A stretch of 63,739 bases of DNA, filler included, from Hausera hauseri (Eukaryota), in assembly GCA_046269625.1 (NCBI GenBank). It is 10 parts of 10 records of this genome, joined end to end, with 100 filler letters (N's around TTAATTAATTAA, not from the genome) between each part and the next. Parts side by side here need not be neighbours in the genome. Positions count along the whole stretch, not along the records: positions 28,627 to 34,668 come from JBJURY010149311.1; 9 more parts are not named here. One strand, given 5' to 3'. This document shows positions 5,045-50,184 of this stretch, one piece after another; the stretch's first letter is position 1; each line of letters starts with the position of its first letter. Both the position numbers and the translations under genes were made by a program. The notes beneath the pieces are model-generated. The model made no database searches. It was given only the letters and a program-made list of their open reading frames with translations, and was not told the origin of the DNA.

Positions 5045-5497
5045 TCATTTCTGTTTTTCTGTAAACCAATCTACTGCCCTCATTTGCCACTTTGTGTATC
5101 TCATAGCTAGCGCTTCGAATTTAACTTTCATTGACCGTTCCATATTTAATAACACCATATTTACCCTATCGATGGACATCTTAGTCTGCTTCCCTCTGAC
5201 AACTGTTATCGTCAACTTTTCCGTCTTCTTACCGACACCCAATTCCTCACATAGTCTTGAATCGACGAAGCTCTCGGTACTAGCATCGTCCAACAACATT
5301 ATTGCTCTTTTCATCCTATCCCCATTCTTCAACCGCACTTCTACCGTTTTTAGATCTATCCTCTCTTCCTGTTCGCTCGCTTCTGGAAGGCCTTGGGTCA
5401 CATAAGCTCTAACACCCTTTTGTTTATTTTGTACCTCCTTCCCTTCTTTTTCTTTCGACATCCTTGACGTAGATTCTTCTGTTGTTGCACCCACCAT
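5045..5497 (-). pseudogene. pol: BEL/Pao aspartic protease region
   Basis: AIMLLDDASTESFV active-site motif, followed downstream by the DGIIG flap motif. Confidence 0.8.
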
Positions 5498-5581
5498 TTT
5501 TTCACTTGAAATTTTAGTTTTTCGTTCTGATTTTTCCTTATTTTTGCCCTCCTTATCTGACTTCTTATTACCAGTTTTTTC

Positions 5582-5727
5582 ATGTATAAATTTACAATTA
5601 TTCCCATACTTACATTCCCCTTTTCATAATACCCACACAACCTCCTTTGATCGTCTGTACTAGGTAGGTGTGAATATTTACAATTCTCGCCGAATTTGCA
5701 TCGACCGTTCTTATCAAAACTCCAGCA
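5582..5727 (-). other. Tandem CCCH zinc fingers at the Gag C-terminus
   Basis: CWSFDKNGRCKFGENCKYSH is C-x8-C-x5-C-x3-H. Across a 1-nt frameshift near 5615, CGYYEKG(E)CKYGNNCKFIH is C-x7-C-x5-C-x3-H, and the shifted frame joins ORF 5045..5497. Confidence 0.88.
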
Positions 5728-5782
5728 TCTTTGTGACCGATCCTCACGTGGGATGTTAGAACGATTAGATTGCATCTCTTCT

Positions 5783-7234: not shown

Positions 7235-7671
7235 TTTGACTTGATTCTTGGCAACATTGAACCTGGGATATCTTATGATTCCCCACAATTTGTTTAACAT
7301 TTTAAGACAGTTTGTTTCGAACAAAAACCTTTGTTTCCTTTTCCAGTCAGTCCACGATTTTATCCATTGTTGTCTATCCTCTCCCGCCTATAGGTATAGA
7401 CAGTAGGATTCTTTTCTTTTAAATTATTATCGTCCTCGGCGCAAGATTCCGTAACTCCCCATGTTAGCGTCACCTTTGTGAAATAGTCACGATGTTTCAT
7501 TATTTTCACTCCACCATATCTCCTCATCGTGCATATTTTACATAAAGTTCCCGCATTTATTTTAACATTCAAATGGAAGGAATAAGTTCCGGAAACAAGG
7601 AGACGGACATGGATGCTTCGAAAGACCAATGCTTCACGTGGCCTGCGCCCGTGAATCACGGTGCGGAGCAC

Positions 7672-7690
7672 AAACCACGCTCTGCTACCA
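7672..7690 (-). promoter_or_regulatory. Primer binding site, initiator tRNA-Met type
   Basis: TGGTAGCAGAGCGTGGTTT, complementary to an invertebrate-type tRNAi-Met 3' end (...AAACCACGCTCTGCTACCA), lying between the 5' LTR and gag. Confidence 0.8.
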
Positions 7691-7695
7691 ACAAA

Positions 7696-9258
7696 TGGAT
7701 ACATTAAATAGAAAATATACGTTATATTCCTTTGGATGTTATTTTTCCCTTCACCCAAATAATACACCTCATTCATAACATTACGACGTATAATTTTCTT
7801 TACAAGTTTCTCTCTGGGCCTATTTCTTTTCAAGCCTTTTTGTTTTCATACTGATTTACCTCGTCCATCACGCTTGATCGTCCAAAAAATGTACCCCCAA
7901 CAAACTTGTTCCTTACTCCACCCAACTTGACCTCCCCGTTTTCAAGATCCGTTCTTCCCTTTTTCAATTCCTCTAGTTCGTTCTGACTAATGCATATAAC
8001 TCCTCCTATAACCCCAGCATTCAACCTGAGCATGATCACAAAAACCCCATCAATCACTAACATAAACACACATACGCTCATACTTCGCTTGCAACCTCCG
8101 CCGACATCCCCGAGACAAGATAAAGAGAAACAATGAAAACGGTTATAATAAACAATACCTCTGAACTTGTACACCATCTCCAGTCCGTTCTGACGACTAC
8201 TAATATCACGTAAATAACTACATGTCACCACTGAGAGATCACAGAACAGATTCATTCCCAACGAGGTTCGCGAGTCCCACCGACAGGTCCATAATGAACG
8301 TCTCAAGGCGGTAGAGTAATTTTGAAAATCACATCGTAAATATTTATCTCCAGCATATACCTTCGAAAATCAACTTTTGTTGTGACGGTAGTTTCGAAGA
8401 ACATTGTTTGTCTATTTTTTGACGTAGGCTCAATTGCTTGGTCGACGCATTTAAATTCCAAAGGTAGATCATATCATTATGTTTGAGGTCAAATTCATCT
8501 TTTATTTTCATTAATTCAACGACAGGTTTATCAACATCATCTAATTTATCAACGTTTTCCAAATGATCCTCTGAATTAGAACAAAGAAATTCCCAAATTA
8601 ACACTTTCTTTGAATTCATAGTAAACACAATCATTACCAACTTTCGGAATTTGTTTTCTGTATGATTTTTCGTCAATTTCTTTATAGTTTCATTAGATTT
8701 CTATCCTTTGAAATGAGCTTTACAATTAAGGACAATTAACAACTCTCCACAAGATTGAATATTCTGATCTATCATCTATCTTTATGTATTCCAAATTAAC
8801 AATATTTCAAAATTTTAAAATTTAAATTTATTAATTCTTAATAATTTATCAATTTGCAATATATTCCCTTTGCAATATATATTTCTACCTTTGTACTTAT
8901 TCACTATAGGCACGTCATATATAACCGCCCACACAGATCCTCCTCCCTCCGCCTCTATGGGTGTCCACGGGGTTACGTCACAATTGCATAATTCACACGT
9001 GTTTACATTTTCTGATCAAACACACCTCTTTTCTCAACCGGACCTCATACACACACAATTTCAACACAATAAATATAAAATATTATGTACAATATATATA
9101 ATACCAGCATACCCGTTCCCATTCCTATACACACATACCTATGGACAGCTACATCTATTTACACACATTCATCTTTACACATACTCTTTCGTTTACCCTA
9201 ATGTTGATTTCTGATTGGATCGTTGCCGAATTTCCAAACTAACAATCGGGTCCCAGCA
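7696..9258 (-). repeat. 5' LTR of the BEL/Pao element (~1.6 kb; inner boundary uncertain, ~7696 or 7630)
   Basis: Begins TGCTGGGACCCGAT at 9258, is homologous to 1..1471, and ends near the PBS candidates. Confidence 0.75.
7830..8775 (-). pseudogene. LTR-encoded ORF, 5' copy (one in-frame stop and one frameshift), function unknown
   Basis: ATG at 8775 lies 483 nt from the LTR start (486 nt in the 3' copy) and is in frame with 8344..8676. A frameshift then leads into 7830..8306, which is homologous to the ORF in the other LTR. Confidence 0.55.
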
Positions 9259-9960
9259 GTTCTTTTCCATTCTAATTACAGCCGTTCGTGTCAAATGTCG
9301 TTAACAAGAAACAGACTCAATTAGATAAATTGCTAATTATTTTTTATCCATGCAGTTATACGAGATGCGTTGTGAAATTAGATTGTACAAAATGCCTTTT
9401 TCAAAACATTATTTTTTACTCCATTTAACACACTCATGAAATTTCGAAAATGTTTTTGTCTAGTTTGCATTTCAATGTTAAGAAAATCATAAAACGCAAT
9501 TTTTTAACAATCAATTAAAAGACACCTATATTTACAATTAAAATGTTCAATAAGGACCTCCATATGATGGGAAATTGACAATTCTTTTACAATCCCTCTT
9601 ATTATGTATTTATAACATTAATGACTTTGACAATAATTGAATACCTGTGACCTTACGATAACTTTAAAATTACCACGATGACTCATTAGAGGGGTCGATG
9701 AAGTTAGCAGTCTGTTTCGTAACAGTTACCCTACAATTGAAGGGTCAATGATATAGGTCTCTCGAGAAAGTTAGCACCAAGCACCCGCATCGAGCTGTAT
9801 TTCTATGAGTTTAGATTTATATCTCCAACAGTTATTGTGGTGTCAACCGTATGTTGCGGTCCCTTGGCCCATTTTAGTCGGGAACAGCCGAATGCGACAG
9901 TTTAGTCCCGACGGTGTAGCTAGCCGAAGGTCGGCTGTCCTCTCTTGGAGGATCTTGTCG

Positions 9961-18999: not shown

Positions 19000-19797
19000 T
19001 CAACAGTCTAAGTTTACAATGTTCCTGATATCATTTTCTATTCGAAATGTCAAAGTCTGGTCTGCATCTGGTCTCTTTTTTGACGGTATTCGTTCAATTG
19101 GAATTAGGACTGGTTTTTGATACTTCATTAGGAGGATATATATTAATTTTCCACTTTTGTGATCATCCTTCAATTTTGATATGACCGATTTGTTTTTCAA
19201 TTGTACAGGTAGCTTGACGTTGAATTCTGCGCCTAATCTTATGGGTAATCGGTATAGCTTTTCATAATCATCGAAGAGGTAAAACATCTTTATATCACTT
19301 GAACGTTCAAATATAAAACCAATCACTTCGTTATTGTAGGTGTCCCATGATTGTAAACTGATTTTGGGTATAACTTGATCTATATAGAGAGGGGGTTCAA
19401 CGGAATCTATCACTACGGGAAAACTAAAGTTTCTCGTGTATATAAGTATTCCGTAAGGGAACGTGAATGTTTCAACCGTAGTCAATCCTTTTATAATCCT
19501 TTCGGTGAATTTTATAAAATCGGTTGTCTCTGTTTGAATTGCACAAGATACTTTTTGAATATCTTTATTATTCCAATCATGATTTGATGCATTTTCATCT
19601 TCTTCACTCGCAAGCTGATCTTCCATCTGTAAATTCTTATCTTCATCGGCAATGATATCTGAGATTTCTGATATAGAGGGAGTTTTCAATTCTTCCATTA
19701 TTTCATCTACAATAGCCTCTGTGTTCTGATTAGTTCCTCCGGTTGAATGATAGATCCATGCAAAATCCGACAGGTATTTTTCTCTATTGTAAAACAA
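19000..19797 (-). CDS. Unknown accessory ORF (265 aa), possibly a frameshifted continuation of 19707..20855
   Basis: Long open frame inside the element, with an acidic linker followed by a globular-looking region. Confidence 0.6.
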   Translation of the reverse strand: MFYNREKYLSDFAWIYHSTGGTNQNTEAIVDEIMEELKTPSISEISDIIADEDKNLQMEDQLASEEDENASNHDWNNKDIQKVSCAIQTETTDFIKFTERIIKGLTTVETFTFPYGILIYTRNFSFPVVIDSVEPPLYIDQVIPKISLQSWDTYNNEVIGFIFERSSDIKMFYLFDDYEKLYRLPIRLGAEFNVKLPVQLKNKSVISKLKDDHKSGKLIYILLMKYQKPVLIPIERIPSKKRPDADQTLTFRIENDIRNIVNLDC

Positions 19798-20855
19798 CTC
19801 CCCGGATCAACTACATTATTAAATGTTTCCTGCGGTGTCCATGATACCTGGAAAGGGTTTGTTACCAACTGAAAAACGTCCATAGTGAGTTTCAATTTGC
19901 CGTGGTCGTCTTGCGCATAACCTTGACCATTTTTAAATCCAGGTAATTTCAAAAGAGTACTGATATTTACTAACGTTAGTTGTTGGAACGTGCGTCCAGT
20001 AATTTCTTCGTGTTTCAGTAAGTCTACCACTCCAGCAAGATAATTGAAAGGAATATCGAAAACCTCTATCATCCTGTGGGTTTCTAATCCGATTACCACC
20101 GTTCCAAGCAACCAGTTAATCATTTCTTTTGTGACATCAAATATGTCTTGTATATGATAAGCGATATATTCTGGTAATATGCCATGCCGTATTGAGTTGA
20201 CGTTATGTAACTTCTTCCTGTTAGCTACAATTGCTTTGTATAATATAGCACCTCTTTTGTTGGCAATAATGACGTGAATGGGTAGAGGGCTATTATCTTG
20301 CATATAACCTGTGGATACAGTTAATATTCTGATGGTATTGCTCTGACAAGTATTTATAAAATTGACCTTGGTTTGTATTATTGTCTCCGGCGGGTTATGT
20401 GCTAAGACCATAGGTCTTGGCAAATACAAATGTTTTTCCGGCAGAAGACATTCGATTATCATAATTATTGGAAGGTACAATGGTCTGACTTGGATCAAAT
20501 CAATACTCATAGGGGTATTGATAAAATAAGTTTCTTCTTCGCAAATCGAGTTTGTGATTGCATCAGAATATCGACTTTCATTTCTTGTTTTTAAACAAAT
20601 CATTCCTCTGGCCACGTGTATTACTATCCCATCAATAGCATCTGTTTTAGCCATATATTGTTTTAATTCAAATTGCTGAGATTCATGAATTGTATATATA
20701 CCAAAATTCCTATTCATGGTTATTTCGTGCTTTAATTGGTTGGGGATACGAACCACATTTAAAGCTATGAAACACTCAGTTTTCACCATTTGTCTTCTGA
20801 TGTTGTTATAAAAGGTTTTTGACAAGGTTTTATTAAAACTACTTCTTGAAACCAT
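19707..20855 (-). CDS. Accessory ORF with a C-terminal REX4/ISG20-like (DEDDh fold) domain lacking catalytic acids
   Basis: HVIIANKRGAILYKAIV...HGI...FDVTKEMINWLLGTVVIGL...LTLVNIS..L follows the REX4 pattern VSIVN..G.VLYD..V...SGI...F..V..EV..LL.G.ILVGH. Domain at about 19863-20333. Confidence 0.6.
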   Translation of the reverse strand: MVSRSSFNKTLSKTFYNNIRRQMVKTECFIALNVVRIPNQLKHEITMNRNFGIYTIHESQQFELKQYMAKTDAIDGIVIHVARGMICLKTRNESRYSDAITNSICEEETYFINTPMSIDLIQVRPLYLPIIMIIECLLPEKHLYLPRPMVLAHNPPETIIQTKVNFINTCQSNTIRILTVSTGYMQDNSPLPIHVIIANKRGAILYKAIVANRKKLHNVNSIRHGILPEYIAYHIQDIFDVTKEMINWLLGTVVIGLETHRMIEVFDIPFNYLAGVVDLLKHEEITGRTFQQLTLVNISTLLKLPGFKNGQGYAQDDHGKLKLTMDVFQLVTNPFQVSWTPQETFNNVVDPGSCFTIEKNTCRILHGSIIQPEELIRTQRLL

Positions 20856-22173
20856 AATTCTGAACTAACGTTTGAAAATCTAATTGATCTGCGTGGTATT
20901 GAGGATGTAGTTTTGAATACAATAAGTTTGATTCTATTTGTGAATCGTTTCTCGTCATTTTTGGGTTTTGGCGTTTCATTTTGAATTTCTGTTGATTGAA
21001 TTGATAGAGGACTGAAAATAAATTAAATTCATTTAAATACTCACCTTTGTAGCTTTGTATACAACATACAACCAATGAGCATGTTAGAAGTTCAACTATT
21101 TGTGGGGACGCATGTAGTGTGTGCGATGATTGCTCGTGTAGATGACTAATTTGCAATCGCCATCTTGAAATTAGTGGGCAGTGACACGTGTTAGTGTCAG
21201 TATGACTGTGTCTGACTATTTTTGGAATAATTAAAGTGCCTATAGCCAACGTAAGCAACAAAGCTATACTTAATACAATGATTAACAAAGCACATATAGT
21301 AATACTTAGCTCAACATTATCAATTTTTGGTCTCATAGTCCGAGATTCGTTTCTACTATCTTTTTTATTATAACTAAATTTAACTACATTATTTATTTTC
21401 TGTAATGTTTTAACATAAATTTCTGAATAGTAGGTACAGTTCTTTACTACTACTAAATATTTAGTATCTGAGCTTAATCCTATGCAATAGGCATATTTTT
21501 GTTTTCTTTCAAAAATAATTCTCTGTTTATGGTGTTGGTTTATACAAGTTATACTAACCCATGCATTCCGAGTATTCGTTTGATGATTCCAAGCGAACTC
21601 TATTCTATCTTGTTTAGGATAAGTTAGTACAAACAAGTTATCCGTAATTTCTATGTCATTATACTTAGCCATCTTTTTATACTCCTTATAGGGTATGTTG
21701 CATATATTTTGTTCGGTCATGAAAGTAGTATCATACACAGAATCATTAATTTTAAATGGTATTAGACATTTAATGCTAGATTTAACTGTCAAATGTAAAT
21801 CCCATCTCTTTTCTTTATTGATCTTAAAAATTAGTGCTAGTAGGGAGAATGGTTGATTTATAACCAATAAAAGACAGGTTAAAATATTGTCTTTATATAG
21901 ATCCGCGAAAGCTAATTTGTCTTTATAAGAAATCACTATTTGTACTATGTTGCTAGTAGGTCTCTTTTTAAATCTTATACAACCTTTTTCAAAGTTTGGT
22001 CCTAACACTTGCATTTCTTTGTTAAATATCTCGTCACCAGATGTATGATTTTGATTCTGTTTTATTAGTTGCACCATTGATTCATAGGGGATGTTAAATT
22101 GACCATAACTCATATGAGTGCATGATAACCAAATAGTAAATACACAAATCATAGTTAGCAGATTGGTGGACAA
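20839..22173 (-). CDS. Type I membrane protein-like extension of Pol: hydrophobic signal-like segment, FN3-like domain, TM helix
   Basis: LLTMICVFTIWLSC, then IEFAW...IGLSSDTKYLVVV...YVKT (FN3 Trp and Tyr-corner pattern, ~21403-21642), then LSITICALLIIVLSIALLLTLAIGTLII (~21223-21309). Same frame as integrase. Confidence 0.7.
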   Translation of the reverse strand: MSTNLLTMICVFTIWLSCTHMSYGQFNIPYESMVQLIKQNQNHTSGDEIFNKEMQVLGPNFEKGCIRFKKRPTSNIVQIVISYKDKLAFADLYKDNILTCLLLVINQPFSLLALIFKINKEKRWDLHLTVKSSIKCLIPFKINDSVYDTTFMTEQNICNIPYKEYKKMAKYNDIEITDNLFVLTYPKQDRIEFAWNHQTNTRNAWVSITCINQHHKQRIIFERKQKYAYCIGLSSDTKYLVVVKNCTYYSEIYVKTLQKINNVVKFSYNKKDSRNESRTMRPKIDNVELSITICALLIIVLSIALLLTLAIGTLIIPKIVRHSHTDTNTCHCPLISRWRLQISHLHEQSSHTLHASPQIVELLTCSLVVCCIQSYKGEYLNEFNLFSVLYQFNQQKFKMKRQNPKMTRNDSQIESNLLYSKLHPQYHADQLDFQTLVQNYGFKK

Positions 22174-22284
22174 TAACTTTGGTGATGTAAACCCGAATTT
22201 TCCAGTATACGATTTTGGAGCCTTTGTTACATTTTATATGGAAACATTCTCTATTTTTCCAGGAGACTTTTCTATGAACAGGGT

Positions 22285-24075
22285 TTATGGTCTTACTTCC
22301 ACAACTTTGTATGGTCCTTTGCCAGTGCGGGTTAATTTTAATGATCTTCCTTTAGCTGTGAGTGGATAATGTATCACGACAAAATCTCCAATTTTATATG
22401 GATTTGACTGAGCCTTTTTATTATAGTACTTGGTGTAGGATTTTTTATAATTATCTCTAACCGCTCGCGCTTGTTCTCCATATTCACTTAACTGTTTTAG
22501 TAATAGTGTATAATTTTTTTCTTGCAGGTTACCCGTAAATGGCAGAACTGTTGGTAGCAGCTTGACATCCAGTAGCAACAACGGAAGTCTTCCAAACATT
22601 AATTCGTATGGTGTTTTATTTGTACTTCTCGTTGGTGTGGTATTCATAGCGAAAGCTACAGTTGGTAATTTATCTGGCCCATTTTTCTGATCTGCAGAGA
22701 CTTGTACGGATAAAATTCCTTGTACAGTTCTATTCGAACGTTCAACTTTACCATTACATTGTGGATGATAAGCTGTAGTTAAAACATGTCTAGTATGTAG
22801 CACCTTTGTGACTTCATTAAACAACTGACTTGTAAAATACGGGCTTTATCTGTTAATATTAATCTAGGTAATCCTAAAACGCATATTAATTTGTTGAACA
22901 ACTCCATGGCTATTGTTTCCGTAGTCATAGCTTTTAATGGGATTAATATAATGTAGCTTGTGTAATAGTCAATAAAACTCAATATATATTTGTAACCTGA
23001 TTCCGAGGTCGGATAAAATCCTGAAATATCCATTTCACATATTTCCATAGGTGCTTTTGGCTCTGGAAGTGTTCCAAGCAGTGGTCTTATACATCTTCCC
23101 CTATCCCTTCGGGTTGCGCAAATCTTACAAGATTTGACCCAATTGATTATGTCTTCTGTCTGATTTGGCCAAAATTATTTGAGTTTAATACGCTTTATGG
23201 TCTTGCCTAACGATGGGTGACCAGCTAGTTGAGAATCATGTTCTTGAAGTAAGACTGATTTTATCAAATAATTAGGTATTACAATTAAGGCTTTATCGTT
23301 GCATATGTATTTCAGTATATTTTTATCTATAATCAATTTGCTTTTGTGGTCTGTCAGCCATTCAGTTAAACGTTTATCAATATTAGGCATTTCTGACGTA
23401 CGTACGTACTGCTTCACTACATAAAGTAAAGGATCGTCATCTTGGACAGTTGCTAATTTGTTTGTATTTAGATTCGAGAATTCTGTCATCATCATAGTAA
23501 ATTCGTGTTCATCTATCTAAGTAAGTGCTGCAGAACTGATCTCAGGATATAGGGTTCGCGATATAGCATCTGCATCGCTGTGAAGCCTTCCTGGTACGTA
23601 TTTAAATTTCGGATTGTAGTTTAATAATTCTAATTTCCACCGTTGGATTCTATTATAAATACGCTTGTTTTTACAATCAAGTTTTTCTAATGCTTGGTGG
23701 TCTGTATAAACTATAACTGGGTAACCATATATATAAAATTCGTAATTTCTTAAGCCTTCTAGAATTGCTGACAGTTCCAATTCAGTAGCTGAATAATTTT
23801 TCTCTTCTTTAGTTAAGGCTCTTCCACCATATGCTACCACATTCAATTCTTTCATTAGGATATTGCTGCGCCAAAATATAGCTTAAACCATTTAAACTCG
23901 CATTCGTCTTTAAAATAAATGGTAATTCAAAATCTGGGTATTGTAGAATCGATGCGGAAACCATTTTCTTTTTCATGTCAAATGCGTTTTGGTGCTTTTC
24001 TTTCGAAATGTATTTCTTATCGTTTCGTAGTAATTCATATAATACACTATTTATTTGGGAGAAGTTTTGTATAAA
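22285..24075 (-). pseudogene. pol: Gypsy pol: RT connection, RNase H, integrase with GPY motif
   Basis: EKNYSATELE, VYTDHQAL, DADAISR, EHDSQLAGH...C..C, LILTD, TTAYHPQCNGKVERSN, TPYELMFGR, GKGPY. Confidence 0.95.
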
Positions 24076-24175
24076 NNNNNNNNNNNNNNNNNNNNNNNNN
24101 NNNNNNNNNNNNNNNNNNNTTAATTAATTAANNNNNNNNNNNNNNNNNNNNNNNNNNNNNNNNNNNNNNNNNNNN

Positions 24176-26383: not shown

Positions 26384-28870
26384 AAATCGATTTTTATTTT
26401 AAAGTGAAATTTGATCGTTTTAATTGGAGTCGATAGAGAATTTCTTTTCTCCATCTGACCCCACTTGATTGCAGATCAAATTATGGCTGTTTCATTGCGG
26501 AGATATTTCATTTTGATGAAATTTTTTGGAAATATTCGAATCGATATATATTCGAAACCGTAAGCCATATTGACTTTCGACCTGTACCAGTCGGTAGAGT
26601 TGAAAAAGCTGAACATTTTTGTCCTTCCAACTGAAATATTCGAAAACTCGGTTAAAAGATATTCGAGTTCGAAACAAGTTTTTTCGAAAAATTTTTCCTA
26701 TTCATACCATCATACACAGAATTCTGTACTACACATTTTTCATTTAGCCAATAGAAAACGAGGCTATGCGTGATCACCTTATGTATTAAAATTGAACTGA
26801 TTAAACAAAAGCTAGAATTCTAACATTAGTTTCTTAGTATAAATCGGTTATTCTACTCTACTTACTTATTATCATTCACTTAAATTTTTAAACTAATAAT
26901 TAAATTACCAATTTACTAAATTTTGTATTAACAATTAAAATATTAATTTTTCCAACATTCTTAAATTATCAATTTACTAATTTTTATTAAATTATCAATT
27001 TTTCTAATTTTCCCAACATATATATAGTTCAGACGGGATAAACACAATACTGATTTTGCATATTCCAATCGACATGAAGTCTTATTAGTTTATGTTAATA
27101 GTCATTGAAGGGTGAGATAAATAAATTAATAAATAAATAAATCGTTTCATACAATTGTTAGAGATAAGTGAATTATCCCTTGTGTTACAGAAACTTGATG
27201 CGTTGATTGATTTAAGATAACATGCAATTTACTCAGCCGTAGTTCTGTCGTGTTTTTTATGAACTATTGTTAACCGAAGAATTAATTACGTCTTGTTTAC
27301 GTGCGATGTACGTAATTAATATTTTATCTTTCTTTCAGACATAAATTGTACACAACTTGTCTTCGTGATTTTTACTGTTCACACTGCACGAAGCAACAAT
27401 TTGTATCACCAATATTTATTGTCAGTAATAAAAGTAGTCCGATCTTACTTTTGGCCAAACGATGAGTTGCTCTTCAGACAAGTTGGGCCGTCTTGAGTGA
27501 TTTGGCTTCGCTAAAAGGGTCAATAATCCAATTGGCATCATTGGTTTCGTTTTTCTTCAATTATTTGTCATAGTAATTTATCCATTTTTTAAAACTAACT
27601 TCATTTATTTCGGGCAATAAAATCAGGCAATTAATTTGTGTTCTAAACAATTATGGACAGCTCTGTGAGCCGCCATAATTGATTAGCCGTGAGTGATAAA
27701 TAACTTGAGAATACCTGTCAAAATCTTTACTGAATTAATTAGAGTCCATATTGTGTAGTTTTTGTTTTATTTTGTCGGTTCAAAGTACTATCAAGAAGGG
27801 TAAAACCTGAAAACGTTCTGAGAGAACATCCCCTACTTAAACAACTCGATTTATATAGAAATTTAAAAACCAACTAGGTCGAATATACATTTCACGGATT
27901 CACCCTCCTCACAAATAAAATACGGTCAAAAGAAAATAGAATAAATTAATAGTTTGTATTTTAACAATAGCCTGGTTGGCTTATTTATAGGGTACAACCA
28001 ACACTATTTTATAAAGTAAAAGCAGAAGTTCTGCCGCGCAAACGTTAAAAGTAATTAAAATATGTACACCTGCTACACAAGTACCCATATGTAATTACTT
28101 ACTAACCCAACACTAACGAAATTTTGAAAATCAAAAATTGTTACTTTATGGAGACGCCTGGCAAGTAATAATAAATTTAGAGCAAAGATAATTTATATTT
28201 ATACATAGAATACACGAATCTAAACAAATAAAAGTTTAAAACGCCATATAAAATTATACTTTTGATATTATGTTTTCATCACTATTTAATGGCATCTCCA
28301 GTCAAAAATCTTTAATAAGTTAGTGCATCGCGTATATAGCGAAATGACACAATTTACAGATCAAGCATACAAATTACTTAATGAATCGATTTATTAATAA
28401 ATTTTACAAATGTCATAAAAATTAAACGTTTATGTTAAACGTTAATATTTAAAGTCTGATTTTATAACACTTGAAGTTATTGATCGCTTTTACATAACAT
28501 TTAGTGTTGCATAATTTACATCATTTNNNNNNNNNNNNNNNNNNNNNNNNNNNNNNNNNNNNNNNNNNNNTTAATTAATTAANNNNNNNNNNNNNNNNNN
28601 NNNNNNNNNNNNNNNNNNNNNNNNNNACTAGATCATTTATGATTGCTGACTCATAAGCTATTGTATGTAAATTATTATTGTATATGAACTTTTAATAAAA
28701 TTAATGTATTTTTAATTTCGGAAAGGGATTAATATGAATTCTATTAAGATTCCCCTTGTCTACTGTGCAGAAGGCACATATTATGTTACGGATTCCAAGG
28801 CCCTTGTTTCCACGTGGCACCTAATACTCACTTTATCTATAATCCACAAGGAATATTTACTCCTACATGA

Positions 28871-29056
28871 ATGACCTGCACAATCTGTTTAAATCATTAT
28901 TCCGTAAATCAGGTGGAGCTGGTCACCTGCAGACATGAATTTTGCCGCTCCTGTCTAAAGGAATGGTTTCTGATATCAAAATCTTGCCCTTTGTGTCGTG
29001 CAAACAATACATTATTTCGAAACGGAGACGAATACTTTACTGTACAAAATTTATAA
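28871..29056 (+). CDS. Small C3HC4 RING finger protein
   Basis: CTIC...CRHEFCRSCLKEW....SCPLCR. Confidence 0.9.
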   Translation: MTCTICLNHYSVNQVELVTCRHEFCRSCLKEWFLISKSCPLCRANNTLFRNGDEYFTVQNL

Positions 29057-29318
29057 ATACATTCTTGTTCGTACAAACCATTTAATTGTGCGGGATGAAA
29101 TAAATAAATATAATTATTACCCACAAGTAGAATAATTGATTAAAACCCATTTCGTTTTAGACGAAATGTAAAAGATCGAATATACGGAATACAGAACGCC
29201 AAGACAATATTTATTTCAAGAATTATCCCAATTTAACATAATAAGATATCTATGATATTATAGAAATAGGCAGAATGGACCAGCTGCGATTATTAGAAGA
29301 ACGATAGATTATACTAAG

Positions 29319-30340
29319 ATGAAAGTGGTCGACGAATCAACGAGAAATACCCAGACGAGGAAAATATCATTTTTGAGCTATCCGAATTCACCCGTTTCAG
29401 GAGGGTTAGCACACTTGTATGCAAACACAGGATTATTTCGAACCACATCTGGACGAATAAAATGTCTATACTGCCAGGAAGAGTTCCTATACTAGTCTAC
29501 AAACGATCATCCAAAAGGACTCATAAGAAATTATATCCCAAATGTCCTTATTTGTTAAACATTAATGTTAACAACGTACCACAGACAGATAGTTTTTCTG
29601 AACAGCCTGATTTAGATAAGGATGCTGATTATGACACGACAGTACCAGTAAGTGTGGTTTACTTAACAGATAATACAATGGAAGAGAATTTAAGCCTAAT
29701 TTCAAATATAGTACAAAAGAGAAAGTCAACCTTCAAAGGAAACGAGAATATCGAACATTTAGCCAGACAAGGACTAATATTAATCTTGAAAGACGAAGTG
29801 CAATATGTAAAGTGCATCATATATTCAAAGGAAACTTACTGGAAAATATTGATCAACGATGCCCAAACATACTGCATACTACTAAATACAATTACTCCAT
29901 ATATAAAACCCCCGAGAATTACAGTAAAAGACGATGCCGAATACAATTCGATATGGGAAATCTTTATGAAAGTTACCAAGACAGTCCAGTAGCCGTGTCA
30001 ATAATAACCCGACACCCTACAAAAAGCGAAAATATACTACAATATATAAAATATCAAACAGAGGGTCAACTAGACTGGTCTCTAAGTGTGTTTGAACTGC
30101 TACAGAATTTAAATTTTATTCCCCCAGAAGAAGAGCAAGAAGCAGAACAAAATATTCTTAATAAACTTTACTTACGTGATTTAGAGTGTACAATTTGCTA
30201 CGCAAACTCAGTACAAGTTATCTTTTTCCTTGTGGTCATTTAGAAACATGTGAGAAATGCTCAAATAGAACAGAGAATTTTCCAGTTTGCAGAAGTCATA
30301 TAAAAAGAAGAATAACATGCTTCAAATTTCCAGAAATGAA
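29319..30340 (+). pseudogene. Inhibitor-of-apoptosis (IAP)-like gene: BIR, degenerate BIR, C-terminal RING; intronless, frameshifted
   Basis: BIR1 is RKISFLSYP...YANTGLF...IKCLYC....Y*STNDHP/THKKLYPKCPY...NNVP, with the conserved W read as TAG at 29493. BIR2-like is RKSTFKG...LARQGL...VKC. RING is CTICYANSVQVIF/PCGHLETCEKC....PVCRSHI. Confidence 0.88.
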
Positions 30341-30838
30341 CAGTGGGAGCATCTCGATTTTGAACGAATTTTTACCAATAAGTCAGTTTGTATTCGATTT
30401 AAACAAATAAATGTTTATTAGTTTATGTACATAAATTTATTAAATAACCCTCTATTGTAATATATTGAACACATTTGTTTATGGAATTAGTGGATACTAG
30501 TAGAATGACTTTAACCAACCTCGACAAGTGGAGAATCCAGTTACTAACTATAAAGAATCAACTTCCTAAAATGGTTTACGAATGGTATAAACTATATAAT
30601 GACCTCTACTCATTAGGGTAATGGAACTAGGGTACTCCAAATACTTGGCGATGGTTGCTATTAAAATCGATGAAAAAGCCGGATATGAAACACTACCATC
30701 AGTGATTACCAACATATATCAAATACAATTAATGGATGATGAATACTACCAGAGAGTTCAACACTTGACTTCGACATTAAAAGGAAAAGAGGAAGAAGTG
30801 GAAGAAAATATACTGATATGAGCCGTGCAATTTGGACT

Positions 30839-30990
30839 TGTTTGATTTGTATAAAAAATCAGTCAAATACGATACACCTACCATGCGGACACATGATTCA
30901 TTGTAAAGCTTGTGTAACTAAACATTCAATGTTATAGAAATGTACTGTGTGAATTACCTATAGAAGAAATCTGTACCATATATACGTACT
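30839..30990 (+). pseudogene. Third RING finger (IAP/MDM2-type spacing), disrupted
   Basis: CLICIKNQSNTIHLPCGHMIHCKAC....*KCTV/ELPI. Not in the ORF track because of a stop and a frameshift. Confidence 0.8.
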
Positions 30991-31024
30991 AAAATGTATA
31001 GAAACTTAGCCTCCTTTAATAACA

Positions 31025-33500
31025 GTGGAACAGGGACATCAATATAATACTCGATCCCGCGGACGATTGGCACAAAATCAGTTGACTGCAATTAATGAAG
31101 CTGATTCAAGCGAAGAAAACACAAGCCCCACTAATAGTTCAAATACTTTAAGTACAGCATCAGCCCCAGAATCATTACTTGACATTGATCCATTACAATT
31201 GTCTCCAGTTCCAGTACAATACCATTGGATACGAGGAGTCAGTGGACGACAAAGGCCACCTCGAGATCAATACCACAATGCACCTAATTCGCGTCAGTTA
31301 GCACAGAGAATTATTAATCAAGAATTAGAATGTCGAACACGTTACAAAGTACATTAAGTAAATGTACATAATTTAAAAATAAGACAGAATCAGGCGGAAT
31401 ATACCATTCGACAGCTACTTAGAGATATACAAGATATAGCCCGACAAATAGGAGACTGTACAGTAGAAATAAGTATCATAAATAAGAGTATGAGACTAGA
31501 TAATGTCGAAAAAAGAAATATACGAATAGAAGAAAAAGTAAATGGTAACGGCACAAGTCTAAATGAACTCGAGGAAAGAACGGATCAAATAATACAAAAT
31601 ATAGGTGCCAATACTAGACAAATACATAATTTATAACAGCAAACTATGGACAACATAGCAGCAATACATAGAAATATGAAACAGATCGAAAATAACGAAA
31701 GAAATGCGAATCAATGGTTAAATGAAATGCAAAATCAAGTAGCAATTATAGTTTGCGAACAAGAACAGATACAAGTAGAAAATAACCTTATCAGAAATCA
31801 AATTGATGTTTTGGCTAGAAACATTAGCCAACTAAACGAATGCCTTAAACACGTACAGGCGAAAGAATTAATAGCTTGACTGAATGAACGAATAGAAGAT
31901 GAGCAATCACCAGAATTTTCAGCGAAACTAAGTTCTATACCTTGTGAAACCTTTGATACCGATAGTGACAACATGGAGCCGCTAAGGAATAATCAGGATC
32001 CCTTGGCTCAGCATGGTGAGCGTAATTGTGGTCTGCAGAGGGATATAAATAACAATTCCGGTTACGACCCACCAAACATTAACGAAAGAAGGAGAAAAGA
32101 GAAGTACCAAATGTTCCCTCGCCTTCAATCATACGAAGGACGAGTATCGGACTTAGAGGATTTTTTAGACGAATACGATTCGCTAGCAACAGCCATGCAT
32201 TGGGTGATGCAAGGAAAATATCTCTTTTACCAGTGCATGTGAATAATTATCTGAGAATGGCAATAACACGCCTACCTAGACGTGTTGACGAAAATTGGAC
32301 GCAACATCGAGAAAGAATTTTACAAAATCAACAAGGTGATGTACAAGAAAACCGATATCTAAAATTTCAAAACTGTAAACAGAAACCGAATGAAGAAGTC
32401 TTAACATACATCAACAGATTTAAAAGCGCAATGAATAGATACTTTGGTTTGAATGAAGAAGCCCTTGGGGATATGATCATGAAGCAATTTGTACTTGGAC
32501 TTTTACCAACTTTACAAAAAGGAGTCAAATTTCATACAGCAAATAATTTTAATGAATTGATAGAATATATCCAACGAATAAAAACTGGAATAAACGAAAC
32601 ACATGTCTGGACTAATCAGAGGCAAATCTCAGCAGTAGCCACAACATTATTGTTAGTAAGACCAGATGTAGCAAATAGTAGTAATTCACCTAGGAGTGAT
32701 CTGTCGAGAAGCCAAAGCCCTAATCGGCAAGACAGCAATACACCACAGAGAGGCAACACTCTGGAAAGCGGAGTTATAACTAATCATCCAGAGACTACAA
32801 CAATAATCAAAGAGATACCTCATATCAAAGAAGTAGAAGATACTATGATGATCGACAACGGAATAATACAAAATACAATAGATCACGAGTTTACTCGAGG
32901 GCCAGAAAGGACAATAGAAACCGATTTCCTAGTAGAGAAAGGTACAGTAATGATAAAAATCCCAATCGTTATGATAATATAAATAATCAGGGGAACCAAT
33001 ATCATAGACGAGATGACAGCCTAACGCGATATCCGACTAATCGGTCGGAAGGATTAAGAACCAACTATTCCAACGACAGGCGAAGTAAAAGCCATGAGAG
33101 GTTTAGAAGAGATGATAGCCGAGATCGATATGGTATCTTCAATAGAAATGTTAGCAGAGAAAGAGATAACAGAAGAAGTGATAGCATAGACAGATATAAT
33201 TCTGGAAATGATAATAGTAATAGGTATAACGATTCGAGATCTGAAAATCTTGACAGAAGGCATGACTATACCCTACCTGGACGAGAATTAGACAGATATA
33301 ATAAAAATCCCAGTCCATATCCTGAAAGAGATCGAAAACAAACCCCATCAACCAGACCAAGCAATAATAATGACAGATATGCCCGACCACCAGATTATAG
33401 TTCCAGACGAAACGAGTCATCATCAAACAGAAATATTTTCTCATCCAGATACGATAGAAATACGACATCCGAATATCCTAAGCACCAAAATGAAAGCAAA
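31025..33500 (+). pseudogene. gag: Ty3/Gypsy Gag: coiled-coil N-terminus, capsid, long R/S/D/N-rich tail without zinc knuckle
   Basis: YNTRS near the start, then heptad-rich 31330-31880. Capsid FPRLQSYEG...FLDEY...A.AMHW/DARKI...FQNCKQKPNEEVLTYINRF...FVLGL lies at ~32111-32590. Confidence 0.85.
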
Positions 33501-35098
33501 TTGGACTCAACAATACCATCTTATAACATTTCCACAAAAGAAAGAGGAAACTCTCTAGATAATAGGAAAAGTAATAATGACGAAAGGAGTGTTTTACCCC
33601 GCCGCTCAGTAACTTTCAACGAACAAAGTAAATCAGCTTTTACGGGACTATTAATGGCCAAACCAATAATAGAACACCAACAAATCACATTCAAACCATC
33701 ATCCAACATGTCTATTTTAGAAAAACCCGTCATAACGAGAAACTATTTGAATCAAGCGGAACGAAAGGTACCAAATTTACAAAATAATACGCTTCCGTAT
33801 ATGTTATGGCCAGAAAGAAAGGAAATCAAAAATTTACTTTTACATCTGTAGCAGTATAAAAAATATCGTAGACGAGCAGGAACCAGAAAACAGTCAAATA
33901 AGAATGGCGTGCGTCGAAGGTGATCAGATAGTTAAGTTAGAAAATGTACATCTCGAAAAAAAAAATGTGCTGAAAGCCTCAGACAGCTACTCTGTGGAAA
34001 ACTTATTGTTGGAATTGAATCACCATGCTTGTTCAAGCAAATACAGCAAAAAGAAACAGATATCTTCGGTACGTTTAGTGTAGATCAGAATTATAATTTA
34101 CCAAATGATTATCGAGAAAGAGAAAATACATTACTCCAGCGATTAACTAATCTACGACAAGAATACAAAATTAAACTTAACCGTCAGGGACCCCAATATT
34201 ATATTTTTCCAAACAGACCATTGTATAAGGACGAGAGACATCCCCAACGAGAAATAACATGTAACACCATCATGATTCCGGAAGTAAAATAACAGCATCT
34301 GGACATAGATACAGTTCGAAATTGGGATAAGATATTTGCTAACAAGAAGTCTAACCAAATAGAGTTTGAAGATATTGCCAAACAAGGATTGATTTGTGTG
34401 GAAGGTGTCGATAAAGCTTACTTAAAGAATACCGATATCCAGATTAAAAAGAATGATTCACCATGTGAAATTAATACCAATAAAGGAGAAGCCTGACTAC
34501 AAGTCAGTAATAAAACAGTAATCATTTCCAAAGGGACTATGATACTTCCCAATTATTCATATGAAGAAGATTGTCAAATCCAACCACTACATAATTGCCC
34601 GTTATACTTAATTCAATTGCTTAAGGAAACACCCATATTATCTGTGGATGAACCTGTAACGCAGGATANNNNNNNNNNNNNNNNNNNNNNNNNNNNNNNN
34701 NNNNNNNNNNNNTTAATTAATTAANNNNNNNNNNNNNNNNNNNNNNNNNNNNNNNNNNNNNNNNNNNNTTGTCCATCTACAAACTGACCATTAAAGACAA
34801 CAATATCGTATAAACAACATGGCCCCAACTCCATGCTTATGTAATCCACAAAGGCAATGTATCGGGAAAGTTTCTTCACGACTGTCCCGTGCCTGAAACA
34901 CAGCGTGCCTCCATTTGGTCATCTGGTTGTTTCTATTATCAACAGCTGTACACTGACTATGATAATGGCGAAATGCGTGAGATATTCCTAGACCATAACA
35001 TCATTGTTGCCTAGGTACGAAAGCACAAAATGAAGACACACACAATTTTGATAACAAATCCATAATAGCTAGGTGAACACTAGTACGTTTTCTTAGCC

Positions 35099-35731
35099 TT
35101 AGTGTTTTTGGTTTGGTTGGGGTGGACTTAAGCAAAGATTGGATGATGCTGATGCAATCGGATGTGTGGAGTAAAATGCATTAGTTCTTTGACTGAAGAT
35201 GTCACCGACGGGGTTCCTGGGCACCTGCTTAACTTGATCACATGATGAGTTCAAGCAATTCGTCGCTTGATTTCCTAACTGTGGCAGGTAGGAAAAAAAC
35301 ATGACGTCTCGTTTTGCATCCTGGGTGTTTAGCCAAAGTCTATGAATACAACTGAATGGCGGATATTGCAGCTGTGATATATTCTTTTGATGAATTTTTG
35401 CCAGTTCCTCTTGGCGAATTTTCTCCAGTTCCTCCTGATTGCTGGGTTTGAGATGATTGTGGCAAGCCAAAGACACGTTGATACAACTCGGAGTAAAGTT
35501 TGGAAAAATGAATGCTTCCTTCTGTACGTTGTTGAGTACAACACCGCCTGTAGAACGTTCTATGCTGAAAGAATCTAATACAGGGCATATTGGTTGATTT
35601 GAAAGAGCGCGTAGTCCAGGTAAGGTGGTGAGGTTTTGGGTCAGAGGCTGAAAATCATAACAGGTGATTGCTGTTTTAATCTTGGGTCTCCTTGTTCCAG
35701 TTGTCGATGCCCTTTTGTTCTGGAACCAGAT
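35099..35731 (-). CDS. Terminal exon of a homeobox gene (homeodomain helix 3 plus a long tail)
   Basis: A polypyrimidine tract and CAG acceptor are followed in phase 0 by IWFQNKRA. The frame is open for 211 codons and continuous with ORF 35099..35476. Confidence 0.75.
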   Translation of the reverse strand: MWFQNKRASTTGTRRPKIKTAITCYDFQPLTQNLTTLPGLRALSNQPICPVLDSFSIERSTGGVVLNNVQKEAFIFPNFTPSCINVSLACHNHLKPSNQEELEKIRQEELAKIHQKNISQLQYPPFSCIHRLWLNTQDAKRDVMFFSYLPQLGNQATNCLNSSCDQVKQVPRNPVGDIFSQRTNAFYSTHPIASASSNLCLSPPQPNQKH

Positions 35732-37680
35732 CTGCGAGAAAGAAGAATAAAATCGACTTTAATTTAACTACTGGTACATCATTATTGAACATCGGAATCC
35801 ATTTCACAAGTCATCCAACTTTTGGTGCACAAAATACATAACACCGACAAGGGTCTGTCTACGTGCTTTTTATCTTATGAATTTTAACCACTGAAATATA
35901 ACTCGGGCAGCAGTTTTTCAGATTACCTTTTATTCCGATTTGCCATTGCCAAAAAGTCTTTAGTGTGGGGAAATTATTCACAGGAATCAAAGAATGTAAC
36001 GTCTGTCTACAATTAGATATGCAGTTCGGTTGCATCTACATTCTTGTTTATTAATTTCCGGGAAAAAAACGGAGTGTCGTCAACGCAGTTTGACATGTAT
36101 TTTGAACCATCGTCACTTTTATTATCCCAAGTCAATTTGTTTACTGTGTATTGCGTCTTCTGTATAAAAATAGACAGGGAAATTATCAAAAGCGATCCAC
36201 CGTGGACTTGCTCAACAGTGAAACTAATAAATGGGAAAAACTGATAATTAATGTTAACAAAAACCAAAGATGAACTTGGATTTAAATACATTTCAAGATA
36301 CGTTTGCCATCAGAGTTAATGAAAAGGGATATATACATTATATATAACGGGCTCTTTTTGAAAACTGACGAAATCTTACACCCCAAATCTGTTGTAGGTA
36401 CATTTTACATACCCCCACCCATTCGTGGTTGTACAATAAACATACACAGTTGGAAACGACATTGTGGAATCCTTAGCACAATAGCCCGCCACGGATAAAA
36501 ATAGGTCACCGAGACTCGTGTATTCCGATCCTTATACGCTATCTTGGGTAGCGGGGTTAAACAAAACGCTCAGATTTGTCAGTAAGTTCAAGCAATTTAA
36601 GTAGTCTTCGCGCTAAAGAGATGAAGTTGTTAATTGAAGTCCTATAGGGCGTTACATCATGATGTTAAATAGAAACACATATGCGCCAATCAGCATGTTA
36701 AAAAAATAGGTTTAGTCCATTCACTTTTAGCGGCTGGCGTTATGCTGACAACATAACCGAATCATGCGCCGGTGTCGAGGAGAAATGTGGACATTAACTC
36801 TACATTTCCCTATACGCCTGTCTTTAGGCTTTAAATAGACTTTACTTTCTTCACTCTTAAAGGCTTGAGTATAGGTAACGTTGAATTTATGTCCCCATGT
36901 TTCATTGACACCTGTACATGATTCGGTTATGTTGTCAGCACAATGCCAGGCCCACTTCACGTTCACATATAATTTATCTAGTACCCATGTTTGAGGTTGA
37001 GTGAGCGCTGGGTTTGTTTTGGTCGTAAAAATCGAACCCGTCACAGCCCGGATAAAATCCACGACCATGCGATCTGCCTGCGACTACTCGACAGTAGAAG
37101 AAAACTAACTCTGTGGCGCTGGTATTCAGTAAGACATTGGACGCCATGCTCAAGAGAGATGGATCATTTAAACGAAAACAAATCTTTCCCCCGTAAAGCT
37201 TCAGGTGGTCACATGTTAAGCAAAACGCACTCAACATATCACACAACAACACCACCATTTTGCACAACCGAGAATCAAAGTAAATAATAATAAAATATTT
37301 CCAAACGACGTGCAATAAAACTTGGGTGAGAATTTCAAAGCTTAGAATATTCAAGAACTTCCTCTCACACCTGTTTACTTCATTCACATGTCGGATTTGG
37401 TGGGACAAGGGAGTATCTCTTCATTATTTCATTATTATTTTTTCTTGTTTAGTTTAACTGTAATCTCTTTTTATTTTAATTTGTTTTATTGTATTCTTTC
37501 ATTTATTGTTTTCTAGTTTATAGCTATTTCATCTATATTTTTGTAATAGTTAATTTCCTGGTTATTATTATTATTTTTAGTATTATTATTCTTCCTTTTA
37601 GTATTTTTCCTTCACTTTGATATCTTCCTGGATCCGCTAAATTCGACTGTGTTAGTTTGTGTTACTTCTGTGTATTGTAT

Positions 37681-46539: not shown

Positions 46540-49500
46540 CCGCTCCTTTCCCTAACTGCACCGAATTCTTTATTGACAACCAAGGCTCCAGCAAAACTTG
46601 GTTGAAATTCCATCAATTATAGCTGCAGGCAAATAACATTATTGACTCTTTAACTAAAGCACATAATCATTTCTTCTTCCTCCCTAATAATATCAAAACC
46701 CGCATTCACAACATCATCAAAATCTTTCAACTTCCAGACCCATATTCCCAACTTTTTAACGCAGTTCTTAAGATTACAGAACCTTCCATGGACACGATCA
46801 TACAACGTTTCTTCCACGACAACGTTATAGGCACCCAACGACCATTGGAATTCTTACGCACCTCTTTAGCATATCTACATACCCTCGGCGTCACTAGAGA
46901 ATACAACCCAGATCTACTGCGCCATTATTTCCTCAATGCGTTACCTATCCAAATTCGGGCCCTACTTACCGTGGTGGAGGACTCCACGCCGCTTGAGAAA
47001 TTGGCCAAATTAGCCGATAAAACACAATGTCCTACACGTAAATTTACCACCAGTTGTTTCAGCAGCAGTTGCTGCTAACGATATTACATCCATAGAACAA
47101 CAGCTTAATCAGCTACGTGTTGAAAATATTGCACTGCGTGCGACAATCAACAATATCAATAATAAATTAAACAAATTGTCTCTGTCCCGCCGAAGGGTTT
47201 TGCTGCTGACCGCGCCCATTCTGCGTCTAGAAACAGCTCATTATCTCCTGCGCCTTCGTCAATCTGCTATTACCACAGAGATTCAACACTAATGCTGTGA
47301 AGTGCTTCCTAGTGTGCAAGTTTTATAACAAGAATTTTCCTCAGACACCGTTGTTTGCATCTACCCTGCAAGGATCAAAAACCAAGCTCGTAAATGCATT
47401 CCAGGCTGCACTTTCAAATCCAATACAAACGACGGACGTACTACCTTTCCTTCTAATAGTCGTCCTAATTTACGCTTTCAAAAATAACTAAGTCCGCCGC
47501 CAGAAGTCACGGCAAACTCTGGCAAAGGCACTACTTCACTTTCTGAACGCCGACACGTCTCTTTTGCTGTCTTTACTCTAAAGGCTGCAATCACCGCTCC
47601 TACAACGCAATCTGTTGACTTCCTCATCGATACAGGTGCAGTGATTTATTTATTACAACAAACCTTTCCTCTACAAATTTTTTTATTCAGAATTAAACCC
47701 TTATACACTGCTTCAGGCCAACCGCTGCACATTTTTGGCATGGCTAAATTATCTTTCACTTTACAAAATTTTCTCTTACCTTTCCACTGGACGATTACAG
47801 TCGCTAACGTTCAGACGGCAATTCTAGGGTCCGATTTTCTATCACACTATAATTTATTGGTTGACTGCAGTCAGCGATGTTTGAGGAACGGCACCACTGG
47901 CGACATTTATGGGCAAGTCAATAGCATTTCGACTACCGCGCAGTCGACCGGAATGCGGAGGTCAATCTTAAAAAAATCAATGAATAATTCGAATTTTCAT
48001 AACAGTAATTCAATTCGTAAATTTTTAAATAATAATATTGATATTCAATTGAGGTTCGATGTCGATAATTGTGGTACTGCCACCAACGTTAATTCATTTG
48101 ACGAAATCACTTCACCCTACACAATTTTCAATTCGACCATCTTACACCAAATACCATTTGATTGCACATCACCTAACAAGTCACAAATTGCATCCGCTAC
48201 TACTCAAGCCGTTCACCACTTTCACCAAATCTCTCACAGTTACCTACAACTTTACAGCAATTTGTCAACACATCATGTCCACGAGTACTTAAAAAAGATC
48301 GTACGTTTACTCCTGCCAACAGTACTTTACACCATATAGTTACAGCATCAACGACCTGTACGCCAAAAAGTACGGCCTCTAACACCTCGTCGTATACAGG
48401 CCGTAGAAGTCGAATTTCTTGAACTAGAACGATCCGGCATAGTACGCCGTTCCAAATCTCCTTGGTCATCACCTTTACACATTGTACAAAAAGGACGGTA
48501 CCTTTAGACCATGCAGTGACTACCGACAGTTGAACAACTTGACTATCATGGATATTACCCTTTACCACTCATCAAGTACATCTCGCATCGTCTTAATTCA
48601 ACCACCATTTATTCGACCATTGATTTAGCTAAAGCATACCACCAAATACCGGTGGCACCCGAAGACATAGAAAAAACTGTTGTCATTACTCCTTTTGGTC
48701 TCTATGAATACCTGTTTATGCCTTTCGGTTTGCTGAATGCAGCACAAACTTTTCAGCGGCACATTGATTTAGTTCTTTTAGATTTCCCGTTTGCACACTC
48801 TTATATCGATGATATTCTAGTCGTTTCATCTTCGGCCAAACAACACGAGGCACACCTTCGCACAATATTCAAACGTCTTAACCACCATAATCTCCCAGTC
48901 AATTTCGACAAATGCCATTTCTTCAGAAAGCGCATTAACTTTTTAGGCCACGTTATTTTACCAGGCGGTCATTCTCCCCAACCAGATCGATTTGAAGCTC
49001 TCAAAAATATCCAGTTGCCACTTACAACCACGGAAAGAAAAAGTTTCCTCCGTACACTACACTTTGTACATAAATATGTACCATATTGTTCCGAATTGAC
49101 AGCACCATTCGCACACTTAAGCGGCGGCAAAAAACATCAACCCATCCAGTGGACACCTGATTTAGCTGACAAATTGGATAAGCTACGCGAAGGAATTAAG
49201 ACCGTCCATATTCTTGCTTTCCCCAAGCCTGATGCAGAACTAATACTTACTACAGACGCGTCAACCACTGCAGTAGGCGCTGTACTCCACCAGATCTACA
49301 AGGAAGAAAATCAACCACTAGAATTTTTCTATCGCATGCTAACAGCCACTGAAACCAGATATTCAACGTTCAATCGAGAACTATTGGCCATCGTTCTCGC
49401 TTTAAAGCATTCCTCCCACCTACTTGTCTCTCGTCATTTCACTATACAAACCGATCCAAGCCCTTATTTAACATCGTGGCTATGAAACACCCTTCCACAC

Positions 49501-50184
49501 GCAAAGAACGAAAAATATCATACTTATTGACATTTAACTTCGACATTAAACACATTAACGGGGTTAACAATTTGGTTGCTGATTTTTTATCTAGGTCGGT
49601 TAGTTCGATTGATTTTTCGCCGATTTTTACGCACGATCAACTTCAACAGAACCAGCCACCTCAGGACATACTTAATTCTTTTAAGTCTTGAACAGTTGTT
49701 GACCGCGTGGCTTTAGACACTTCCGAACTAGGCCATTTAGTAATAATCTTAGCACTATCATTGCAAAGGCAAACATTTCACAGCGTGCATTCACTACACC
49801 ACCCTGCTGCTAAAGCCACTTTTCGTCTATTCCATCGACAAGTAATTTGGCGGTTAATGCGTTCTGATTTGCAGAAATGGGTTAAGGAGTGTGTGGCTTG
49901 CCAAAAATACAAAACAGCTAAGCATTTAAAGCCAGCACTATTCCACTTTCCCTGCACATCGCGTTTCGAATCCGTGCATATCGACATCGTTGGTCCTCTT
50001 CCTACAGACAACGGACATCAGTTCATCCTCACTATGATGGACCGTTCCTCGCAATGAGCAAAAGCCATCCCTCTGCGGAGCACAAATACCGACACTATAG
50101 CTGACGATTTCATTCGCACATGGATTAGCAGGTTTGGATCACCTCGCTTCATCATCACGGACCAGGGTCCACAGTTTGAATCCA
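46540..50184 (+). mobile_element. CsRn1/Kabuki-clade Gypsy retrotransposon (gag-pol, decayed, 3'-truncated)
   Basis: Gag FLNALP.QIRALL....LEKLAKLAD; CYYH.RF...A.KC...C (CHCC) finger; FLIDTGA; IDLAKAYHQIP; MPFGL.NAAQTFQR; YIDD; TDAS; HSLHHP...C..C; VHIDIVGPLP. Confidence 0.93.

Follow-up and report, generated by a model that had tools for sequence, protein, structure and literature searches.

The window analysed here (the whole stretch of DNA, 63,739 nt) consists of ten contigs, strung together with spacers of N that contain a six-frame stop linker, a make-up that the original prediction, concerned with 28871-30990, had not seen. A single A-rich contig of 6,042 nt (28627-34668) bears both the RING genes and the gag; it begins 244 nt upstream of the first RING and ends, on its 3' side, inside the gag open reading frame (ORF). 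On its plus strand lie RING1 (28871-29056), an IAP-like pseudogene (29319-30410, ends approximate) comprising a BIR, a BIR relic, a helical region and RING2, a BIR-less pseudogene with a terminal RING3, here called gene 3 (30481-30992), a 32-nt spacer (30993-31024), and a decayed Gypsy-type gag ORF that runs off the contig (31025-34668). The element copy on this contig is dead, and the Gypsy-type element to which it belongs is highly abundant. Searches against Rfam gave no match within the window.

All three RING fingers, predicted to be co-oriented, were borne out on the plus strand, each exceeding its Pfam cut-off: RING1 matched PF13639 (45.4 bits) and PF00097 (37.5 bits), while RING2 (about 30187-30323) and RING3 (about 30839-30992) matched PF13920 with 31.5 and 32.3 bits, respectively. 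A BIR profile was built from the 52 distinct BIRs among 58 found in 37 viral IAP loci fetched from IMG/VR via a short motif, and an IAP-RING profile was built from 27 viral IAP RINGs. On the latter, RING2 (48.0 bits) and RING3 (38.4 bits) were of the IAP type, and RING1 reached 18.3 bits. Broken frames were read with X at stops and frameshifts (X-read).

An IAP-like pseudogene with one recognizable BIR

Searches of single frames against Pfam and PDB detected no BIR anywhere in the cassette. The BIRs had been predicted to be hidden by a stop and frameshifts, and for the first of them this explanation holds: once X-read, BIR1 (29355-29557, plus strand) scored 21.0 bits on the viral BIR profile, compared with a best score of 6.7 among 2,000 shuffles, and none of 300 shuffles reached its score averaged over the 52 BIRs. 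A stop (29493-29495) and a frameshift (near 29517-29521) interrupt its frame, and it keeps all four zinc ligands in the pattern C-x2-C-x16-H-x6-C. BIR1 places the gene in the IAP (BIR-containing) family. Three residues after the His it has a Leu, where the viral BIRs used here mostly have Trp; we take this residue to be part of the BIR peptide-binding groove, and because its Trp is replaced, direct binding of caspases or antagonists by BIR1 is doubtful.

The second BIR (about 29717-29904, plus strand) stayed at -2.2 bits on the same profile. Averaged over the 52 BIRs, its score was matched by 27 of 300 shuffles, and that against one natural BIR2 by 79 of 3,000. It has a frameshift near 29831-29835 and retains two of four ligands, the first Cys and the His; in most other copies (33 contigs, 285/311 of the depth in sequencing run X1) the last ligand is not encodable. 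The colinearity of the X-read with the protein of viral locus L013 suggests that this relic was formerly a BIR. The predicted BIR-BIR-RING layout was thus overstated: BIR1 and an IAP-type RING2 are there, but the second BIR is only a relic, and the BIR profile run on the X-read sequence recovered BIR1 but not BIR2 as a domain. Since the last BIR2 ligand is mostly lost among copies and BIR1 carries the Leu, simple caspase blocking is questionable.

The X-read of the whole gene aligned colinearly with the BIR-BIR-UBA-RING protein (351 aa) of L013 (22% identity over 351 columns, E 5.6e-11), in agreement with the prediction that the gene is intronless. Its damage amounts to one stop and three frameshifts, and an AATAAA signal follows it at 30406. 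The alignment places a helical region (29959-30150, plus strand) where natural IAPs have the UBA; Pfam gave no UBA match there, and the alignment score of this region was reached by 686 of 3,000 shuffles. Single-sequence models of two helical regions (pLDDT 55 and 61) were of low confidence and without a fold match, the one at the UBA place (pLDDT 55) having a best Z of 3.1. RING2 was matched on the 3' frame and has a frameshift near 30226; in the copy at hand its seventh ligand is missing and it carries a 28-aa extension. As 57 contigs of run X1 have other letters at the codon of the missing ligand, this loss looks private to this copy.

In domain order and length, in its IAP-type RING, and in the zinc ligands and spacing of BIR1, the gene is like IAPs of the BIR-BIR-(UBA)-RING kind from animals and large DNA viruses, and it differs from them in its low identity to the best match, L013, and in its degenerate second BIR. 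Protein searches over limited length ranges found no intact relative of the IAP-like gene, none of 770 and none of 60 candidates being related to the IAP piece. A baculovirus origin was considered and is unsupported, the best whole-length match being just 22% identical and containing a UBA-type region, for which most other fetched viral IAPs have no room. The idea that L013 might itself be a retroelement was rejected; its contig has large-DNA-virus-like genes. A 351-aa BIR-BIR-UBA-RING IAP (PF00653, PF21290 below cut-off, PF13920) was observed at L038:4259-5314, on a contig with large-DNA-virus-like genes.

A BIR-less gene 3 and an unrelated RING1

As the original prediction had missed, RING3 is the 3' end of the longer gene 3, which is damaged by three frameshifts and one stop. 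Its acidic linker and RING aligned with those of the IAP-like gene (33% over 57 aa, E 1e-8), and because the two genes have this linker and RING in common, gene 3 probably arose by duplication of the IAP-like gene's C-terminal half.

RING1 is an undamaged, open 61-aa C3HC4 frame with all eight zinc ligands. It is not of the IAP type, and it may represent the 3' portion of a larger gene that has been disrupted; an AATAAA signal follows it at 29099. Its AT skew (-0.01) indicates no A bias, while the skews of the IAP-like gene (0.19), gene 3 (0.17), and gag (0.29) share one direction. In run X1, the summed depth of other copies over RING1 was 42-110, about a tenth of that over the rest. Cargo status is accordingly weaker for RING1 than for the IAP-like and RING3 genes. 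The predicted similarity in decay between cassette and gag is compatible with counts made by eye (about 8 breaks in the 1.79-kb cassette versus about 9 across the 3.64-kb gag, p = 0.30), but does not extend to RING1, which has none.

A Gypsy-type gag 32 nt downstream

The predicted Gypsy gag downstream of the RING genes was confirmed by a Retrotrans_gag match (PF03732, 28.4 bits, cut-off 24.1) at 32263-32493. An intact natural relative of this gag, P0001 (1,339 aa, on a 6,828-nt contig, 20.1 bits for the same family), aligned from window position 31025 onward, with 48-61% identity over four pieces; its residues 1-1225 were matched in three frames at 44-56%. The ORF comprises a predicted coiled coil, the Retrotrans_gag core, an R/N/S/D-rich region, and a C-terminal part without assignment. 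No CCHC motif was found in the 1,339 aa of P0001 or in the three window frames; where zinc knuckles usually sit, a long R/N/S/D-rich low-complexity stretch was observed (32784-33560, plus strand; 21% Arg in P0001), and this region may bind RNA in their place. Compared with 1.84 billion representative proteins, the gag core had five matches, of which P0001 was the sole close one. The named matches (hagfish, Daphnia) were rejected as a clue to the host, as they are generic gags.

The RING genes had been placed about 40 nt before gag; the close adjacency stands, and the spacer, from the stop of gene 3 to the start of the P0001 alignment, measures 32 nt. It ends in TAACA-g-TGG, which resembles an LTR end followed by a primer site. 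The cassette might accordingly ride inside an LTR, with the CA immediately ahead of gag as the end of the repeat and the RING genes as host pieces incorporated into the LTR, and the AATAAA signals after RING1 and the IAP-like gene count in favor of such an arrangement. We nevertheless judge it quite improbable: the canonical primer-site geometry (TGG-N12-G-R-N-T) occurs nowhere within 28627-31200, and the TGG overlaps the codon aligned with the first residue of P0001. Neither an LTR nor a primer site, which had been named in advance as signs against cargo, was found from RING3 to gag. The contig 28627-34668, which ends inside the gag ORF, holds no LTR-sized repeat and no LTR, protease, reverse transcriptase (RT) or integrase; any 5' LTR would lie beyond the contig end.

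Copies of the cassette in sequencing runs

Two public runs contain the stretch, and no RNA run is among those listed. Of the 15.5 million contigs in the first, X1, 10,356 matched the 6-kb contig at a level of 80% or more, 8,751 of them being under 95% alike. Judged by this number of contigs rather than by dispersal itself, the Gypsy-type family is multi-copy. The region 28627-31330 received 2,574 contigs (86 at least 99% alike and 1,499 below 90%), covering 30 of 30 bins. Since X1 may be the source sample, it may show copies within one genome rather than spread across species. The second run, X2, contributed a 240-nt piece identical to the window gag, and because of this identity it was not taken as a second species. 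Searches for a second locus with gag as the query confirmed none of 108 and none of 215 pattern matches among metagenome contigs, none of 2 and none of 158 among viral contigs, and none of 20 among prokaryote genomes; a locus search with a neighboring RT yielded no pattern match.

Cover was uneven along the cassette. Summed depth in X1, which is not a copy number but with which distinct-contig counts agree, was 32-113 as far as 29263 and rose to 282-1152 in the IAP core. It fell to 112-217 from the gap behind the IAP-like gene into the first part of gene 3, reached 854-2529 in the remainder of that gene, and stood at 1098-1571 where gag begins. The coding parts were thus better covered than the stretch between them at the 80% cut-off, as expected if coding sequence was conserved during the spread of the family. 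Among the 40 variant sites listed of 353, those in the IAP coding core were each represented by 16-67 contigs and those in gene 3 by 13-62. These data also bear on the LTR arrangement described above: cover was not higher upstream of the junction (1040 versus 1409), unlike what two LTRs plus solo LTRs would give, and no place with many contig ends appeared in 28627-31330 among the 6 loose-end entries listed of 581.

The cassette and gag could also be chance neighbors, the gag having inserted beside a cluster of host IAP retropseudogenes. Retroposed, intronless, tandem IAPs are reported in several animals in the available text of PMC13159474, and RING1 behaves unlike the rest of the cassette. 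However, an 806-nt contig, whose first 129 nt are unaligned, spans 30607-31283 from gene 3 into gag with 128 differences (about 81% identical), so that a diverged copy has the same gene 3-gag junction; single-copy linkage, the second sign named in advance against cargo, was therefore not what we found. The spacer itself is covered by 31-45 diverged contigs with other letters at sites 30989-31030, among the same 40 listed of 353 (31, 31, 41, and 45 contigs at 30989, 30997, 31010, and 31025, respectively), and its 32 nt are too short for an LTR. Chance neighborhood, extremely unlikely overall, is largely refuted for gene 3.

The proposed linkage of IAP and gag in multiple copies was seen in part, as gene 3 and gag were joined in the one diverged contig. 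No contig among those listed joined the IAP-like gene to gag or to gene 3, which we attribute to the length of the other listed contigs (about 300 nt). Given the many diverged contigs, the gene 3-gag bridge, and the lack of an LTR end or canonical primer site, we interpret the IAP-like and RING3 genes as multi-copy cargo. It is fairly probable that they are internal accessory cargo of a high-copy Gypsy-type family, and that active copies likely encoded ubiquitin ligases that damped cell death or stress signaling in whichever cells expressed the element. The prediction that a retrotransposon had captured these genes is thereby supported for the IAP-like and RING3 genes, which are multi-copy, bridged to gag in one contig and free of the signs against cargo, and less so for RING1.

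Comparison with Burro and other gene-carrying elements

Capture of genes through LTRs, and accessory ORFs carried by the LTR elements of animals, have reportedly been described by Tan et al. 2016 and Rodriguez et al. 2017. The window element resembles such cases in having intronless host-type genes inside it; it differs in that its cargo is multi-copy, with coding parts that look conserved between copies, rather than a one-off retrocopy.

A closer comparison is with Burro/GYPSM1, giant Gypsy elements of planarians in which RING, BIR, BCL2-like, MATH, and ankyrin motifs are described (PMC6431247, available text). Both pair a Gypsy-type gag with BIR and RING cargo, both have a coiled-coil region, and one Burro-like element is described with upstream accessory ORFs. 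Burro elements exceed 30 kb, reside in triclad planarians, and have their env in frame. Their env stands after gag and before pol (same source), and env-before-pol order is also seen in the window, on a separate, unlinked contig (39095-45323). The differences are several. Burro gags have two or three CCHC knuckles after the core (same source), whereas the window gag and P0001 have none. Moreover, the RING genes that precede gag on the window contig are three in number and separate, its second BIR is a relic, a duplicate without a BIR is present, and it has no MATH, BCL2 or ankyrin match. Because its gag has no CCHC knuckles, the element is a Burro-like variant rather than an established Burro member.

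The RING and BIR region of Burro1 is reported to shield stem cells from caspase-mediated apoptosis (PMC13465017, available part, citing Lee et al. 2026). Available text of PMC8532177 treats Burro1 with respect to expression only, and that of PMC13524379 mentions neither BIR, RING nor Burro. Our literature search, with subscription papers and Repbase entries outside its scope, found no IAP-bearing Gypsy other than Burro, and Burro1 was the sole reported LTR element it returned with host-benefiting IAP cargo. The same layout or hosts may already appear in the supplements to Lee et al. and to Grohme et al. 2018. IAP cargo ahead of gag is thus known in kind from Burro1, which removes most of the novelty, and for now the window cassette is a further example. 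If this is a second lineage, with its own kind of gag, it would let one ask whether IAP capture occurred once or repeatedly, and could also show whether capture fills the loss of RING-containing IAPs, which are reported to be nearly absent in flatworms (PMC13159474, available text). Along these lines, a Gypsy lineage distinct from Burro might have independently captured a RING-type IAP in a non-planarian, possibly parasitic, flatworm of a phylum largely without RING-IAPs of its own. The three-ligase cassette (IAP, BIR-less duplicate, unrelated RING) would then be the host's main source of such activity, so that transposons would convergently provide a cell-death regulator that had been lost. 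We regard this scenario as rather unlikely.

A possible role in ubiquitination

The element would have taken up a spliced IAP message, after which the C-terminal half of the IAP would have been duplicated within the element to give gene 3, and RING1 may have been gained in a subset of copies. The AATAAA signals after RING1 and the IAP-like gene would be consistent with expression of the cassette as separate accessory genes. In IAPs, BIRs bind partners, and the terminal RING dimerizes and ubiquitinates them. By analogy, the task of BIR1 would be to bind a partner and that of the RING to dimerize and recruit an E2, and the ubiquitinated targets could be caspases, IAP antagonists or signaling adaptors, with the BIR-less gene 3 acting as a RING partner or decoy. 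The cassette most likely works like the Burro IAP cargo, and the cargo most likely helped host cells tolerate the element; that it keeps host cells alive, as originally proposed, we infer from the Burro1 precedent.

The main functional rival is a ligase role against silencing or immune factors. Here the cargo would have another job, the three RING ligases removing silencing or restriction factors or tuning immune signaling and BIR1 serving as a scaffold. The relic state of BIR2 across copies, the BIR1 groove without its Trp, the absence of a BIR from two of the three genes, and the RINGs being the best conserved parts all fit such a role. Set against this, BIR1 retains its four ligands, and the Burro1 BIR and RING protein is reported, in the available part of PMC13465017, to be anti-apoptotic. 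On balance, we consider a role of this kind possible yet unlikely.

Other contigs of the window

On the contig at 39095-45323 (plus strand) lies a Gypsy element that has decayed. In it, a fusion protein of the mononegavirus type (PF24664, 56.1 bits) precedes a protease-like motif, and RT, RNase H, integrase and a membrane-protein-like frame come next; the whole corresponds to the Burro order. The contig shares its AT skew (0.22) with the gag contig. A Gypsy RNase H and integrase on the minus strand at 19000-24123 are followed by three extra frames without a Pfam match: a membrane-protein-like frame of 464 aa, one of 385 aa with weak likeness (E 0.01) to the P0001 C-terminus and exonuclease-like by eye, and one of 268 aa. 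A second, ordinary Gypsy gag-pol lies at 46623-50057 (plus strand).

Between direct repeats of about 280 nt that are 76% alike, a BEL/Pao-type element occupies 1207-9262 (minus strand). It carries a ubiquitin domain (6578-7102; PF00240, 65.9 bits) that precedes its DUF1759 region, as well as three frames (7360-8700) without an explanation. The window further includes a frame with a homeobox-end-like motif (35099-35758, minus strand) and a piece of a mariner-type transposase (62559-63050, minus strand; PF01359). A GC-rich exon encoding an Ig domain and a membrane span lies on a CpG-poor contig (51881-52873, plus strand) and resembles the end of a vertebrate semaphorin. With this vertebrate-like exon beside Gypsy, BEL, and mariner pieces, the window mixes organisms.
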